Assembly (NCBI GenBank): GCA_930986425.1
Contig: CAKNJR010000005.1
Location: forward strand, 27,638 to 91,637
DNA: 64,000 nucleotides
Direction: 5' to 3'
From: an uncultured Clostridium sp.
Lineage (GTDB): Bacteria > Bacillota > Clostridia > TANB77 > CAG-508
Shown: positions 18,041 through 26,056 of the stretch, piece after piece
Numbering within the stretch: the first letter of the stretch is position 1
Layout of the letters: every line of letters starts with the position of its first letter
The notes under the pieces: model-generated
The model's database searches: none
What the model saw: the letters and a program-made list of their open reading frames with translations, nothing else
Told to the model about the DNA's origin: nothing
Program-made: the position numbers and the translations under genes

Positions 18041-18116
18041 GCGGGAATAGCTCAGTTGATAGAGCGTCGCCTTGCCAAGGCGAAGGTCACGGGTTTGAGC
18101 CCCGCTTCCCGCTCCA
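18041..18116 (+). tRNA. tRNA-Gly (anticodon GCC), CCA encoded
   Basis: Hand-folded cloverleaf. Acceptor GCGGGAA/TTCCCGC, D arm GCTC-AGTTGATA-GAGC, anticodon arm TCGCC-TTGCCAA-GGCGA, T arm ACGGG-TTTGAGC-CCCGC, discriminator U73, CCA. Positions 19 and 56 are unusual (see findings). Confidence 0.9.
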
Positions 18117-18208
18117 TATTATATTGTAGATATTTGTTTATATTATTGAACAAATATTTTTTATAGTTTTTTGTTCTATATAAACTTTAGTTGCATATAT
18201 TTTATTAT

Positions 18209-18282
18209 GGCGATATAGCCAAGTGGTAAGGCACGAGTCTGCAAAACTCTGATCCCCGGTTCGAATCCGGGTGTCGCCTCCA
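18209..18282 (+). tRNA. tRNA-Cys (anticodon GCA), CCA encoded
   Basis: Acceptor GGCGATA/TGTCGCC, D loop AAGTGGTAA with GG, anticodon loop CTGCAAA, T arm CCCGG-TTCGAAT-CCGGG, U73, CCA. Confidence 0.9.
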
Positions 18283-18842: not shown

Positions 18843-20777
<1,935 letters not shown>

Positions 20778-21040: not shown

Positions 21041-21059
21041 CTTCAAGGAGGTGCTTTTG

Positions 21060-22445
21060 ATGGAACAAGAATTAGCATATTCATTTCACTTAGGTAGTGA
21101 TAAAAACAAAAGTAAATTAGCCAAAAGAGTATCAAAAGATAATGTATCTGGTACTACTTCTCTTTCCAATAATGCTATTCAAAATGCAAACGATTTATCT
21201 AGAGTTAATAAGCATAATTTAAGAGATTATGATAAAAATAAAGAATTAATTAAAGTAATTTATGGTACAGATAATATTATAACTGATGTAAAAGATTTGT
21301 ATTTAAAAGAATTTGAAGAAGCAAAGATAGATTATAACAATAAGCAAAGTCGTGAAGATAGAAAAATAAAAAACTACTTCCAAAAAGTATGTGAATCTCA
21401 AAACGATATAGCTTGTGAAATTATAATAGAACTTGGAGATATGGATTTCTGGAATGATAAAGACCAAGAATATAGATTGAAAATGATTGATGTATATAAT
21501 GAACAAATAAAGGATTTAACTAAAATTGTGCCAACTTTTAAAATAGCAAATGCTACAATACATTTTGATGAAACTTCTCCACATATGCACATTGTAGGTG
21601 TACCAGTAGTTGAGAATTGTAATAGAGGGATGAAAAAACAAGTTGGAAAAAGCAAGCTATTTACTAAAACATCATTAACTGATATACAAGACAAAATGAG
21701 AAATGCCTGTATTAAGTCATATAATAAGTTTTATGAAGTTGATACTAGACTAAAAGAAAAACAAAAAGGTAGAAATCAAGATATAAATGTAAAAGATATG
21801 AGTAATTATAAAAAAATAAAAAAACAGTTGGACAAGAACGCACAAAAACTTGCTGAGGCAAATAATCAAACAGAAAAATTAGACAATAGCGGTAAAGATA
21901 TAAATTCAATATTAGATAAACTAAAGCCATCTAAACTTAATAAAAATAATAATCTTATTTCAAACGAGGATATTGAAAAAATCAAAAATTTTACAAAAGA
22001 TGTAAAAGATATTGCTAAAACAGTTAGAAGTGTAAATGACTTAAATATGGCTATCAAAGATTTTGAACATAGTTCCTTTGAAATAGCACAAGAAAATTCT
22101 TCACTAAAATATCAATTAGATTTAAAAACTGATGAAATTGATAGATTAAAAAAAGATTTGTCTGCAAAGGAAAAAATTATTAGTAAATTACAAGCAGAAA
22201 AAGAAAAAATAAAACAAGAATTACAGAAATTTAAAGACTTCTGGTATAGAATTATGGGACATTTCCATAAAAGAATTTGCTATGACAAAGATAATAACTA
22301 TAAAATAGTTAGTGATGACTTATACAAAAATGGTATATTTACTGATGATGAAAATGAAATTGCAAATAATATTGCTAGAAAAGTAAAACCAAAAGAAGAA
22401 CTAGAAAATAAGAGTAAAAAGAAAAATAATTATGAATTAAAATAA
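21060..22445 (+). CDS. MobV-family (Mob_Pre) relaxase
   Basis: HFDETSPHMHIVGVPV matches the HxDExxPHxH motif of MobV relaxases. K/E-rich coiled-coil C-terminal half. ATG 21060 has AAGGAGG 8 nt upstream (the track starts at GTG 21051). Confidence 0.85.
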   Translation: MEQELAYSFHLGSDKNKSKLAKRVSKDNVSGTTSLSNNAIQNANDLSRVNKHNLRDYDKNKELIKVIYGTDNIITDVKDLYLKEFEEAKIDYNNKQSREDRKIKNYFQKVCESQNDIACEIIIELGDMDFWNDKDQEYRLKMIDVYNEQIKDLTKIVPTFKIANATIHFDETSPHMHIVGVPVVENCNRGMKKQVGKSKLFTKTSLTDIQDKMRNACIKSYNKFYEVDTRLKEKQKGRNQDINVKDMSNYKKIKKQLDKNAQKLAEANNQTEKLDNSGKDINSILDKLKPSKLNKNNNLISNEDIEKIKNFTKDVKDIAKTVRSVNDLNMAIKDFEHSSFEIAQENSSLKYQLDLKTDEIDRLKKDLSAKEKIISKLQAEKEKIKQELQKFKDFWYRIMGHFHKRICYDKDNNYKIVSDDLYKNGIFTDDENEIANNIARKVKPKEELENKSKKKNNYELK

Positions 22446-22898: not shown

Positions 22899-24257
22899 AT
22901 GAATTATGGAAAAGAGATTAACTATGACTTAATAGACGAATTATACTACGAATGGCGTAATGAACGTGATCCGTTCGCTCAAAGAAATAAAAGAGATGAA
23001 ATTAAAAGAAAAATATCTCCATATGAATTTTTAGTTTATAGTTCTAGAAATTCATATATGCCTTTTAAGATATTTAGAAATATTTTCGGATTATCAGATT
23101 TATTTGATACACTTGAAAAAATGCAAATGCAAGGCAAAGACATAAGTAATTTAACTAATCAATTATTATTAATAGAAACTCCAGAAGATATAAGAGATTT
23201 AAACAATTTTGCAAAAAGAGAGACAACTTCGGAAGTAAGTAATTTATATTGTGTATGTATGGGAAATAATATATTTAGATATGGAGATGTCAAAAGTATA
23301 GGGAAAAAATTTTTGAATATACATGTTAATAACTTAAGTTTAGAACAAATAGAATATATGATTAAATCACAAAATGATTATAAAGGTATACCAATTACTA
23401 TAACTATAGATAATATAGGGCAACTTCCATTAGATAAATTAGCTTATATTGAAAGTAAATTTGATGTTGAAGGAATACAGATATTAGACAGAGATAAAGT
23501 TAATCAAGCTCATCAAGGTGAACGTACTCCTTTAAATTTAAGAACTTATAAACAAGTTAGAACAATAGCAAATGATATTATTAGTAAACTTTATATTGAA
23601 AAGAATTCGAATTCAGATAAAATGCTTATTGATTTTCAACTTGCTATACAAATAATAGACGAGATTGCACACAGAATTGATTACGATTATGATGCAGAAA
23701 ATAAGCCACGTTTTTCTGATGAGGTAATAAATGCTAGTGGAATGGTAGGATTATTAACAGGAAAATCATTATGTAAGGGGTATTCGGAAATTTTAAGGAA
23801 TATTTTAAGTTGCGTAGATGTTGAATGCACAGTTATCGATGGTACTGATTTTAATAATAATGCTCATACATGGAATCAGGTTAAGTTAGGAGATATATGG
23901 TTTAATGTAGATTTGACTTATGCTAGAAATGCAATATGTAATGGAAAGCCATCTGGAGATTTGTTTATGTCAGATATGGCTTTTTATGGGAATAGAAAAC
24001 AATACACTTTTGAAAAGGGACAAGAGATTAATGGTAAAAAGGTAGAAAGTACTGTAATGATAGGAGGTCATTCATCACAAGTTTATGGTTCAAATTGTAG
24101 ACAATGTAGATCTTATGTTACTCCATATTTAACCTCAATTTTAATAGAAAAATCTAGAAATTATAATGAAAATTATAATGGAATTATACAATATGTAGGA
24201 AGTGACATTGAAAAAGCACGTTCTGAATCTAAAACAACTATTAACCCACAACGTTAA
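22899..24257 (+). CDS. Transglutaminase-like (Cys-His-Asp) domain protein
   Basis: 452 aa with a GAGGTG RBS. The C-terminal half has GKSLCKGYSEILRNIL ... NNAHTWNQVKLGDIWFNVDLT, the Cys...HxW...D core pattern of transglutaminase-like cysteine peptidases. Confidence 0.65.
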   Translation: MNYGKEINYDLIDELYYEWRNERDPFAQRNKRDEIKRKISPYEFLVYSSRNSYMPFKIFRNIFGLSDLFDTLEKMQMQGKDISNLTNQLLLIETPEDIRDLNNFAKRETTSEVSNLYCVCMGNNIFRYGDVKSIGKKFLNIHVNNLSLEQIEYMIKSQNDYKGIPITITIDNIGQLPLDKLAYIESKFDVEGIQILDRDKVNQAHQGERTPLNLRTYKQVRTIANDIISKLYIEKNSNSDKMLIDFQLAIQIIDEIAHRIDYDYDAENKPRFSDEVINASGMVGLLTGKSLCKGYSEILRNILSCVDVECTVIDGTDFNNNAHTWNQVKLGDIWFNVDLTYARNAICNGKPSGDLFMSDMAFYGNRKQYTFEKGQEINGKKVESTVMIGGHSSQVYGSNCRQCRSYVTPYLTSILIEKSRNYNENYNGIIQYVGSDIEKARSESKTTINPQR

Positions 24258-24275
24258 AGAAAATAATAAAAATGA

Positions 24276-24304
24276 TTTACAATAAAAAGAAATCTTAGTA
24301 TAAT
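24276..24304 (+). promoter_or_regulatory. Strong orphan promoter (TTTACA-17-TATAAT) driving a short plus-strand RNA
   Basis: TTTACA at 24276-24281, a 17-nt spacer, TATAAT at 24299-24304. No ORF follows. A terminator lies about 60-95 nt downstream. Confidence 0.5.
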
Positions 24305-24310
24305 AGTTAT

Positions 24311-24399
24311 AGGAAATGAAAGCCACAGAAATGTGTGCTACCATATAAATTATATGATAAAACACCACAAAGCTTGGCAGAGCAAATGTGGTGCTTTTT
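24311..24399 (+). ncRNA. Candidate antisense/antitoxin sRNA (about 90 nt) convergent with the small toxin-like gene
   Basis: Bounded by the promoter above and the hairpin CACCACA-17 nt-TGTGGTG plus CTTTTT (24363-24399). It contains GTGCTACCATATA (24335-24347), complementary to the start-codon region of the minus-strand peptide mRNA. Confidence 0.35.
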
Positions 24400-24400
24400 A

Positions 24401-24514
24401 TTATTTGCTCAAAATTACTACTATTGCAATAATCAAGGCAAATGCTATAATAGTCATTCCTACTAAACCGTAGAAAAGTAAGTATATGATCATTATCATA
24501 GTTTGTTCTACCAT
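24401..24514 (-). CDS. 37-aa hydrophobic peptide, candidate type I toxin
   Basis: Too short for the ORF track. GGAGGTGG lies 9 nt upstream of ATG 24514. Translation: MVEQTMIMIIYLLFYGLVGMTIIAFALIIAIVVILSK, a single TM helix with a polar C-terminal SK. Confidence 0.5.
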   Translation of the reverse strand: MVEQTMIMIIYLLFYGLVGMTIIAFALIIAIVVILSK

Positions 24515-24778
24515 ATAGCACCACCTCCATTCTCACAGCTAAAACTGTGTATGTAAAGTGGTAGCACCCACACTGCTTATTCTCATTTCCTATGTTTAGC
24601 AGTAAAGCATATTGATTTATAAAAATCAATGTTTAAGAACAAAAATTTGTAGGAAGTTTTTTTATGAAATTTATTGCAATTTACAAAAAATATGATATAC
24701 TTTTATAAATTGATTGATTATTGTATCAATCGCTATGGGGAAAAAAGTTGTAGATAACTACGACGTTCGCTCCAAAAG

Positions 24779-24804
24779 CAAAAGCACCAAAATTGGTGCT
24801 TTTT
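24779..24804 (-). terminator. Bidirectional hairpin terminator after 24807..25508
   Basis: AGCACC-AAAATT-GGTGCT is flanked by an A-run and a T-run. On the minus strand it is followed by TTTTGCTTTT. Confidence 0.55.
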
Positions 24805-24806
24805 AT

Positions 24807-25508
24807 TTATTTATCTTGATAGTTATCTACTTCTCTATTCATTAAAGTTTTCGATTCTAATACACTTGACATTCCCCTAAAAGTCTTTCCTATTTGAAGC
24901 TTTCCGTTTTCAGATAAAACATTAATTTCTGTTCCATCTTGTAATTTCCAACTTAAAGGAGATTTTCTTTCTATTCCTGTAGAGTATATAATATTGCCAT
25001 TTTCATCTTTTGTCATAGGTGTTCTATTTGTTACTACTTTTTTCTCACCATTACTAACAGGAAGTTTTACTGGTTTTATATTACCTTTTCTATCTCTCAT
25101 TACTAGCTGATATAGCTCTTTGCCATCTTCTTTATCTATCTGTTTTGTTAAGTATATATTTATATGTGCATTTGGGTCAATTCCTTGGCTCATCAATATT
25201 TTACTAACCATTTCTTGATTTTCTAATTTTGTAATTGCACTAGTATCATGTACATCCTGATAATATTTATTTATTTCTTCAACGGCATTATAATCTTCTG
25301 GTTTTCCTATTTCTTCTGGTTCTAAGTTATATCCTCTCAAGTCCCATGATTTTAAAGCGGGTTCTTTTGCTTGGATTTCTACTTGTCTGTCCGGATATTT
25401 CTCACAATCTTCTAAATATCTATCATAAAATTCTTCTGGTACAAACCAAAATATTTTCTTTTCCTCTCCTGTTAATTCGTTTATTTCTGATGTAGCAATT
25501 TTTCTCAT
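24807..25508 (-). CDS. Hypothetical protein (233 aa from first ATG; frame stays open about 170 nt further upstream)
   Basis: ORF track entry. No recognisable motif. See the frameshift finding. Confidence 0.55.
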   Translation of the reverse strand: MRKIATSEINELTGEEKKIFWFVPEEFYDRYLEDCEKYPDRQVEIQAKEPALKSWDLRGYNLEPEEIGKPEDYNAVEEINKYYQDVHDTSAITKLENQEMVSKILMSQGIDPNAHINIYLTKQIDKEDGKELYQLVMRDRKGNIKPVKLPVSNGEKKVVTNRTPMTKDENGNIIYSTGIERKSPLSWKLQDGTEINVLSENGKLQIGKTFRGMSSVLESKTLMNREVDNYQDK

Positions 25509-25683
25509 TCTAGTTTTTTTAGGTACACATTCATGTCTTCCGAAGAAAATATTTTTGAAATGATATTTTGAAATTCTATCTATTTCTTTTTGAGATAGTC
25601 TAGACTTTAAATTGAAACTATCTGCATGTCTTACACAATCTCTATATATAATGCATCTTATTTCAAATGGCTTTCCTTTTCCG

Positions 25684-25875
25684 TTAGAATAGTCTTTTGT
25701 TGTACTGATTCCGATTTTTCATTTCTTCTCTAGCCTCATCTTCAGTAATACATGATAATTCTGAATCTGTAGTAAAGCTATCTAAAATGTTTAAATTATC
25801 TTTCCACTTAGCCGAATTTGTACCATGAATAAAGTAAGTCCAGCCATTTGGTATGTTTATCGTTTGTTTTACCAT
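25684..25875 (-). CDS. Hypothetical 63-aa protein, possibly the N-terminal part of a frameshifted gene
   Basis: ORF with a GGAGGGGAAC RBS-like sequence upstream. Its stop lies 1 frame away from the open frame leading into 24807..25508. Confidence 0.4.
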   Translation of the reverse strand: MVKQTINIPNGWTYFIHGTNSAKWKDNLNILDSFTTDSELSCITEDEAREEMKNRNQYNKRLF

Positions 25876-26056
25876 AGTTCCCCTCCATATTAATCATACA
25901 AAAAATTTAAATTTATTTCAATATCTTTATTAAATTTAGAGCTTTTTACTTTAAAAATTACAAAACGCTCCGTTCAAAGTTGCCTTTCGGTTTCTCTGAG
26001 CGGAGCGCCCCCACGCATGTGGGCATGTTGCGCGCTGGTGCTGTTTTTTTTCCGTT

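Follow-up and report, generated by a model that had tools for sequence, protein, structure and literature searches.

Toxin-antitoxin (TA) modules of type I with convergent genes are the closest described counterparts of the locus reported here. The par module combines convergent promoters, a shared bidirectional terminator, a stem that sequesters the Shine-Dalgarno (SD) sequence and direct repeats (DRa/DRb) that add complementarity over the SD and the initiation codon, and a YUNR U-turn in the terminator loop of its toxin RNA is found in some but not all par homologues (PMC7472228). In txpA/RatA and bsrG/SR4 the 3' ends of the two RNAs overlap by ~75-120 nucleotides (nt); RatA and SR4 promote decay by RNase III, and SR4 also tightens the SD stem of bsrG, so that 3' binding of the antitoxin RNA is relayed to the SD (PMC4147584). 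Two reports on Clostridioides difficile ascribe to its type I TA modules a role in keeping mobile elements (PMC6563280; PMC7699646). Here we describe a cassette at positions 24276-24629 of a 64,000-nt stretch of DNA, called the window below, from an uncultured Clostridium sp. (assembly GCA_930986425.1, contig CAKNJR010000005.1). It sets a minus-strand gene for a hydrophobic peptide of 37 amino acids (aa) against a convergent gene for a predicted small RNA (sRNA), and it is one copy of a conserved unit of ~350 nt that most likely constitutes a new family of type I TA modules.

The open reading frame (ORF), both promoters, the sRNA structure, the terminator and an SD-sequestering leader are conserved in alignments that span many genera, and spacers and flanks vary; the entire cassette recurs in hundreds of loci. 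An earlier interpretation of this DNA (the sequence-only reading) had suggested a type I TA organisation with txpA/RatA, bsrG/SR4 and fst/RNA II as models. The convergent genes and their shared bidirectional terminator support this at the sequence level in many genera, but only fst/RNA II is a close match, since the overlaps of the other two are longer. The 37-aa frame with a strong ribosome-binding site is present as that reading had it (Table 1), and homologous ORFs of 32-39 codons are intact in 66 loci, always behind a GGAGG-type SD; GGAGGT is nearly invariant in alignment A4. With ~30 consecutive hydrophobic residues, the peptide has the form of a small (<60 aa) hydrophobic peptide with a predicted transmembrane helix. 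The pooled ratio of nonsynonymous to synonymous polymorphism (pN/pS) is 0.47-0.57 in the two large length classes and the second codon position varies least, which points to a product that is translated and moderately constrained, chiefly to stay hydrophobic.

The plus-strand promoter that the sequence-only reading had singled out is the best promoter-like site in a 2-kb scan (11/12). Its counterparts in 51 homologous loci read TTGACA/TTGACT-17-TATAAT, with a mean score of 11.6/12 and 34 perfect matches; the hexamers are conserved, and the spacer and upstream DNA vary. At the position of the mRNA promoter the same loci have TTGnnn-17-TATAGT/TATACT (mean 8.75/12), and the sRNA promoter is the stronger of the two in 49/51. 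The 92-nt sRNA predicted for the window (24311-24402) folds in RNAfold at -24.8 kcal/mol (z -3.5; 0/200 shuffles as good), forming the terminator and a 5' hairpin. The order of 5' hairpin, variable AU-rich linker and terminator recurs across the homologues, and hairpin 1 is found in all 56 distinct ones, with compensatory stems CACA/UGUG, CGCA/UGCG, CCAC/GUGG and CUAC/GUAG. RNAfold also folds the hairpin that, together with its U-tract, had been placed at 24363-24399. The T-run ends right before the peptide stop codon, and the A-run/hairpin/T-run symmetry is conserved in all loci; a simple terminator scan skipped this hairpin, its loop rule being 3-8 nt. A search of 23000-26000 against Rfam at E <= 10 gave, within the cassette, only snoR43 at 19 bits against a threshold of 50, and the best matches of the interval lay outside the cassette or far below threshold.

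As judged from the sequences and the modelled folds, an anti-SD element in the mRNA leader sequesters the SD. In the minimum free energy (MFE) fold of the 236-nt window mRNA (-69.6 kcal/mol, z -4.2), UACCACUUU is paired with the SD flank GGAGGUGGU. In an independent set of 71 leaders, the paired fraction of the SD window is 0.79 and falls to 0.55 on shuffling of the upstream part; the native value is the higher one in 68/71. The small hairpin H2 enclosed by this helix has both-side changes at 5/5 pairs, with 96.9% of cells paired and 0/500 shuffles reaching the observed score. Around H2, (U)ACCAC/GCCAC pairs with the GUGG of GGAGGUGGUGC; this helix is 96.4% paired in 55 loci and almost invariant, so covariation neither supports nor opposes it. 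Three loci without H2 have a direct GCCUCC-loop-GGAGGU hairpin instead. The sequence-only reading had noticed the leader motif GTGCTACCAC, which is present one base away from where it was put (complement of 24558-24567, not 24559-24568), and had suggested that it could mask the start codon. This needs revision: in the modelled folds the motif pairs with the SD flank and not with the AUG.

Co-folding of the two predicted window transcripts with RNAcofold produces a duplex with 49 intermolecular pairs over the shared terminator and a ddG of -50.1 kcal/mol. A second contact had been proposed between the sRNA and the start codon. The repeat on which it was founded is real, GTGCTACCATATA at 24335-24347 matching GTTCTACCATATA at 24505-24517 in 12/13 positions, but the pairing is limited to the window's own subfamily, whose peptides begin with MVEQ. 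When only the 5' parts are co-folded, the dimer uses CUACCAUAUA:UAUAUGGUAG for a net gain of just -3.5 kcal/mol, and a match as good as the 10-nt perfect complement CTACCATATA turns up in 3.5% of shuffled window sRNAs. This complement stands above shuffles in the MVEQ subfamily only (p 0.00-0.035), other subfamilies being at chance, and even among MVEQ loci (L065, L066, L023 and L016, for instance) the linker has changed with no compensation. Because it is MVEQ-confined, decaying and energetically marginal in these comparisons and models, start-codon pairing does not appear to be the common mechanism of the family, though within the window's subfamily it may add to terminator pairing. Conserved pairing in trans where translation starts was rejected as well: the sRNA 5' part against the leader gave an RNAduplex mean z of -0.38 relative to shuffles. 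With nothing above chance outside MVEQ, the terminator overlap is the sole family-wide complementarity. A lock of the leader segment UGUGGUUU by the 5' arm of hairpin 1 (AAACCACA) is retained only as speculation, the match being only 8 nt long and not above shuffles (p 0.11-0.31).

From this arrangement we infer that both RNAs are made with the ends given in Table 1, that the peptide is toxic and that the sRNA neutralises it, and we can suggest a route. A moderately strong minus-strand promoter would give a ~240-nt mRNA for a 37-residue membrane-inserting peptide, and this toxin mRNA would be made translationally restrained, with the anti-SD lying on the SD flank across the small hairpin. A near-consensus plus-strand promoter would supply the ~92-nt structured sRNA, presumably in excess. 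Both RNAs would end in the same bidirectional terminator and so share ~49 nt of perfect 3' complementarity. Pairing would probably begin between the two terminator loops, as in par, and could then trigger either cleavage by RNase III with decay of the mRNA, the txpA/RatA route, or stabilisation of the SD-closed fold, the bsrG/SR4 route; by analogy, a route of the bsrG/txpA kind seems the most plausible for subfamilies without 5' complementarity. In the window's subfamily the extra 10-12-nt match might place the sRNA over the start codon, in the manner of DRa/DRb in par. On a mobilizable element, the cassette would serve as an addiction or stabilisation module.

Table 1. Features of the cassette, with window positions, and peptide classes found on related cassettes
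Feature	Position	Strand	Remarks
sRNA promoter, -35 TTTACA and -10 TATAAT	24276-24281; 24299-24304	plus	17-nt spacer; 11/12
Predicted antisense sRNA, ~92 nt (putative antitoxin)	24310..24402	plus	ends predicted from promoter and terminator
sRNA 5' box UAGGAAAUGA	24310-24319	plus	
sRNA hairpin 1, GCCACA-GAAA-UGUG(U)GC	24321-24339	plus	
sRNA AU-rich linker with GUGCUACCAUAUA	24335-24347	plus	linker GCUACCAUAUA
Terminator hairpin and U-run	24357-24399	plus	stem 24363-24393; T-run 24395-24399
Shared bidirectional terminator, 3' overlap of both predicted RNAs	24354..24402	both	49 nt
37-codon ORF, hydrophobic peptide MVEQTMIMIIYLLFYGLVGMTIIAFALIIAIVVILSK (putative toxin)	24401..24514	minus	stop codon 24401-24403
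Shine-Dalgarno GGAGGTGG / GGAGGUGG	24521-24528	minus	6 nt before ATG; 9 nt from GGAGG core
Leader hairpin H2, CACAG-UUUUAG-CUGUG	24534..24549	minus	inside the anti-SD:SD helix
Leader motif GUGCUACCACUUU	24555..24567	minus	anti-SD UACCACUUU at 24555-24563, pairs with GGAGGUGGU
mRNA 5' end, box UAGGAAAUGAG followed by AAUAAGCAGUGUGG	24582-24592 (box); 24568..24592 (segment)	minus	
mRNA promoter, -35 TTGATT and extended -10 TGcTTTACT	24624-24629; 24601-24609	minus	17-nt spacer; read from sequence
Other peptide classes on the same chassis in other genomes (at least four)	L080-L092 and L095-L214		..LYKNWVDKQLHK; M[GS]FILFLIYALMVSSTINVALLTILYIKYVNSKIDKE; MLDFLMFLIIGFMISITINVALVSVIYIILSNKQQ; 50-aa form with tail RKLDNPKKNTPLSGS

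Starting from the sRNA promoter and 5' box alone, with no reference to ORFs, a census collected 110 units. In 94 of them the sRNA is faced by an ORF of 25-60 codons that follows an SD and finishes at the terminator; the other 16 have no recognisable ORF. The encoded peptides form at least five classes with a common mid-helix motif, [ST][IL][IN][AV]xAL, and several have lysine-rich tails, which on sequence is the classical shape of a type I toxin. The window subfamily keeps ~90% DNA identity across several genera, and the commonest chromosomal type is MIEAVLLEIIYLLLFGLVVETIIVFALIILVIILSK. Some loci retain both cassette ends around a divergent middle and thus place other peptides, such as MFMVKVILFFIISLMLSLTLNVALTAVLYKNWVDKQLHK, on the same RNA chassis; one copy of the MFMVKVILFFIISLMLSLTLNVALTAVLYKNWVDKQLHK-type gene is frameshifted. 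The class B copy L090 is frameshifted. In many loci of the MIEAV type (L036, L041-L043, L053, L071 and others) the 5'-box AUG and the peptide ORF share a frame that no stop interrupts (MRISRCGLPLL..ENGGGA-MIEAV..), and in the window this AUG instead opens a separate frame of 15 codons. The in-frame AUG could be a chance inheritance of the conserved leader; a conserved upstream ORF from the 5'-box AUG was rejected, as frames and stops differ between loci and AGGA stands only 1 nt from the AUG.

Database searches place the peptide in no described family. Pfam, NCBIfam and PADLOC returned no meaningful match for the window peptide and four variants (Pfam and NCBIfam even at E <= 10), and a full-text literature search with four peptide strings found no paper that contains them. 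Among 1.84 billion protein representatives only 13 relatives reached E <= 0.001. Where the peptide has been gene-called, it belongs to a 33-member cluster whose sole name is 'hypothetical protein', so it is not wholly absent from gene calls elsewhere.

Several observations weigh against a TA module. A pN/pS near 0.5 reflects only moderate constraint; the charged C-terminal tail usual in type I toxins is missing from the window peptide, whose last residues, ..VVILSK, include just one Lys; and, as the RNAduplex scores indicate, the subfamilies keep no sRNA:mRNA complementarity in common beyond the terminator overlap. The simple model also leaves unexplained the same-sense 5' box and the leader:terminator complementarity that we describe below. 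The first two points would also suit a small membrane protein that is not toxic, for example a modulator of a transporter or sensor, whose level the sRNA and the leader keep low by antisense regulation, without TA function or addiction. The window-type peptide is hydrophobic almost from end to end and matches no toxin family, and many chromosomal copies do sit in conserved housekeeping neighbourhoods, for example between plsX and rplL. We nevertheless regard this as unlikely. Sister classes on the same chassis do bear charged tails (KNWVDKQLHK, KYVNSKIDKE, RKLDNPKKNTPLSGS), and peptides from sister cassettes such as ..LYKNWVDKQLHK and ..YIKYVNSKIDKE have the canonical helix followed by a charged tail. 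Furthermore, the sRNA promoter is systematically the stronger, the copies within a genome are multiple, divergent and independently placed, some have decayed, their presence at a given site differs among congeners, and mobilizable elements carry them across genera. Such features are typical of selfish TA modules and not of a housekeeping small protein.

The cassette is widespread within a narrow lineage. The source genome (1.76 Mb in 34 contigs; G+C in the window averages ~30%) has three intact copies, an orphan sRNA and a truncated remnant. The two other intact paralogues encode peptides 65% and 59% identical to that of the window, and an alignment of the three loci extends over ~330 nt and takes in both promoters, the flanks being unrelated. 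Cassette DNA matches 149/201 sampled genomes and 42/50 genera of the same family, and a carrier genome typically has 1-4 copies. Among genomes sampled from the order, it occurs in 62/77 genomes of that family (f1), in 7/77, 5/33 and 1/4 genomes of the sister families f2, f3 and f84, and in 0/9 genomes of sister family f83; copies per genome range from 1 to 6 over the two samples. A peptide-profile search of 401 genomes across the class gave matches only in the same family and one sister family, and none outside the order, at a sensitivity below that of the DNA search (it recovered 3/8 genomes of the family itself). An exact-pattern scan of named genome records yielded at least 120 loci, nearly all in metagenome-assembled genomes (MAGs) labelled uncultured Clostridia bacterium or Clostridium sp.; the sources are human, rabbit, mouse and ruminant guts, and all named carriers are gut MAGs. 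Two pattern matches, L101 and L130, lie in bins labelled Bacteroidaceae and Lachnospiraceae ('cleanbin' isolates), a placement that is probably due to mis-binning or mislabelling, transfer also being possible. No match was found among PLSDB plasmids with blastn in distant mode.

The sequence-only reading had put the window copy on a mobile element, and it does sit within a mobilizable one. A transglutaminase-like gene (22899-24257) and an unknown gene (24807-25508) flank the cassette, and on its 5' side lie a serine recombinase (18858-20777) and a Mob_Pre relaxase (21051-22445), adjoining genes for tRNA-Gly and tRNA-Cys. A genome of another genus has the same cassette at 97.5% nt identity, beside the same transglutaminase-like gene (94% aa identity) and serine recombinase (84% aa identity). 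This common set shows that mobilizable elements carry copies across genera. The two tRNA genes occupy 18041-18282 and the serine recombinase directly follows them; att-like direct repeats were sought around the element as marks of its ends, and none was convincing. One near-identical cassette copy, at L014 (~1430-1460), abuts a tRNA gene. A second hairpin with a T-run is found at 24780-24807, behind the convergent gene 24807-25508. It has weak, sub-threshold Rfam matches to the rimP leader and SpF10, and its 3' arm and T-run (24788-24807) are a 90% repeat of 24383-24402, with the sequence CAAA(A/T)(T/G)TGGTGCTTTTTATT.

The presence of the cassette between plsX and rplL varies among congeners. 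This site is filled in the source genome (L003, 1380-1760) and empty in five congeners (L217-L221), the intergenic gap being 51-190 nt when empty and ~430-530 nt when filled, which gives an insertion/deletion unit of ~390 nt. Together with the 1-6 copies per genome and with ends that form an inverted repeat of the promoter plus ~35 nt, this might point to a mainly selfish repeat resembling a miniature inverted-repeat transposable element, in which the promoter and UAGGAAAUGAG box at the ends serve mobility and the ORF, promoters and hairpins are incidental or secondary. We consider this very unlikely. At the filled and empty plsX-rplL sites neither a target-site duplication nor a sharp terminal boundary was seen. 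The ORF has remained open, its SD and start codon are conserved and its substitutions keep hydrophobicity; compensatory changes keep the RNA helices on specific strands; and the asymmetry in promoter strength is systematic. The open ORF, compensatory changes and promoter asymmetry argue for selection on expressed products, and mobility and TA function are in any case mutually compatible.

The decayed copies in the source genome were recovered by a pattern search for the sRNA promoter plus the 5' box. The orphan sRNA (G000:C1:128047; locus L215, G000:C1:127950-128550, sRNA ~75-205) keeps the promoter in its perfect form, TTGACA-17-TATAAT, along with the 5' box, hairpin 1 and a terminator, and no peptide gene lies behind it; its linker is CACUUCUCCUAAAUG, an anti-SD-like CUCC stretch, where others have UUGCCA. 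In the remnant (G000:C28:11318; locus L216, G000:C28:10800-11400, minus strand ~545-415) the terminator of the sRNA is mutated, and the peptide gene is reduced to its final ~14 codons (..IALIITLVIILSK). An sRNA that persists alone could mean that the plus-strand RNA acts independently in trans on other genes and merely shares the terminator of the peptide gene, and the 16/110 census units without a recognisable ORF and the lack of conserved 5' complementarity to the peptide mRNA would fit that idea. It is hardly probable, however, given that 94/110 sRNA units face an SD-preceded ORF ending at the terminator, that motifs are common to the sRNA and the mRNA leader, each of which co-varies with the terminator, and that the geometry makes the 3' overlap obligatory. 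Orphan antitoxins are common by-products of TA decay. The frameshifted copy, the truncated remnant and the orphan sRNA are decay products typical of TA families and thus support a TA module.

Two features of the RNAs are not accounted for by simple antisense control. Both predicted RNAs open with the same box in the same sense, UAGGAAAUGA(G) at 24310-24320 on the plus strand and UAGGAAAUGAG at 24582-24592 on the minus strand, and further in they have GUGG(U)UUGCCA or GUGCUACCA in common. In addition, leader nt ~13-30 (the segment starting AAGCAGUGUGG, 24568-24581 on the minus strand) are complementary to the 5' arm of the terminator; for the window copy the duplex energy is -17.7 kcal/mol. With two exceptions, the complementarity co-varies across four terminator classes. 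For a separate, independent set of 62 pairs the cognate mean is -15.7 compared with -14.0 +/- 0.3 for permuted pairs, a value that 0/2000 permutations reach, although relatedness inflates such tests. The leader:terminator complementarity could represent a 5'-3' lock, an antiterminator, or a relay of sRNA 3' binding to the SD of the kind described for SR4 on bsrG. A broader interpretation sees the cassette as an RNA switch, self-contained and modular, whose chassis has taken up different membrane peptides (classes A to E at least). Toxin output would then be set not by simple antisense occlusion but through RNA mimicry or competition among three co-evolving motif copies, in the mRNA leader, the hairpin-1 3' arm of the sRNA and the terminator 3' arm. 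The leader and terminator arm would pair as a 5'-3' lock or antiterminator, or the sRNA would compete for the same partner. We hold this scheme to be rather improbable, and prefer a type I TA module in which the sRNA acts through the shared terminator.

If a TA module is what the cassette encodes, it would define a new TA family, nearly universal in a whole lineage of uncultured gut Clostridia with small genomes (from humans, rabbits, mice, ruminants and birds), present in multiple copies per genome and also on genus-crossing mobilizable elements. Its compact conserved chassis with interchangeable peptides would be a natural experiment on how RNA structure controls a toxic gene, and makes it a possible building block for synthetic devices of post-transcriptional control. 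After a test of one member, names could be given to several hundred short genes and sRNAs that are now unannotated or called 'hypothetical protein'.

In hok/sok and aapA1/IsoA1 the toxin mRNA is held in a 5'-3' long-distance fold-back lock. The complementarity and co-variation between the cassette leader (nt ~13-30) and the terminator arm resemble such a lock, but in the cassette the leader's partner is the stem of the terminator, the local hairpin persists in the MFE fold, and the genes are convergent and not 5'-overlapping. The C. difficile modules (CD2517.1/RCd8 and others) come from the same class, Clostridia, and are alike in having convergent genes and unannotated small membrane peptides. 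Their toxins, however, are 50-53 aa long (34-59 aa over all modules) with lysine-rich tails, their RNAs have long complementary regions, and there is no sequence similarity to the cassette. The window CUACCAUAUA:UAUAUGGUAG pairing recalls SprA1/SprA1AS of Staphylococcus aureus, an RNA I/RNA II homologue, but the 5' pairing of the cassette is weak and not conserved in the family, and its peptide is unrelated to PepA1.

The bsrG/SR4 and txpA/RatA modules of Bacillus subtilis share with the cassette the convergent genes, the 3' overlap, a location on mobile elements and an SD held in a stem of the free mRNA, and their antitoxins bind far from the translation start. The cassette differs from them in an overlap of only ~49 nt, limited to the terminator, and in its unrelated peptides; it has no hidden Markov model (HMM) or Rfam match. 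The likeness to par (Fst toxin mRNA RNA I and antitoxin RNA II of Enterococcus faecalis pAD1, with its relatives in the Fst/Ldr family) goes further and covers the convergent promoters, the shared bidirectional intrinsic terminator with complementary 3' stem-loops, the intramolecular toxin-mRNA structure that sequesters the SD, copies on mobile elements as well as core chromosomes and, for the window copy, a directly repeated DNA stretch through which the sRNA could also pair at the initiation codon. Unlike Fst, the peptide has no PXXXG motif, Pro, Trp, charged tail or Fst HMM match; the predicted sRNA is ~92 nt long instead of ~40 nt; the repeat is a single one of 13 nt (12/13), present in the MVEQ subfamily only; and the same-sense 5' box of both cassette RNAs is absent from par. 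Although its peptide does not belong to the Fst family, par (Fst/RNA II) is thus, on the sequences compared, the closest architecture to that of the cassette.

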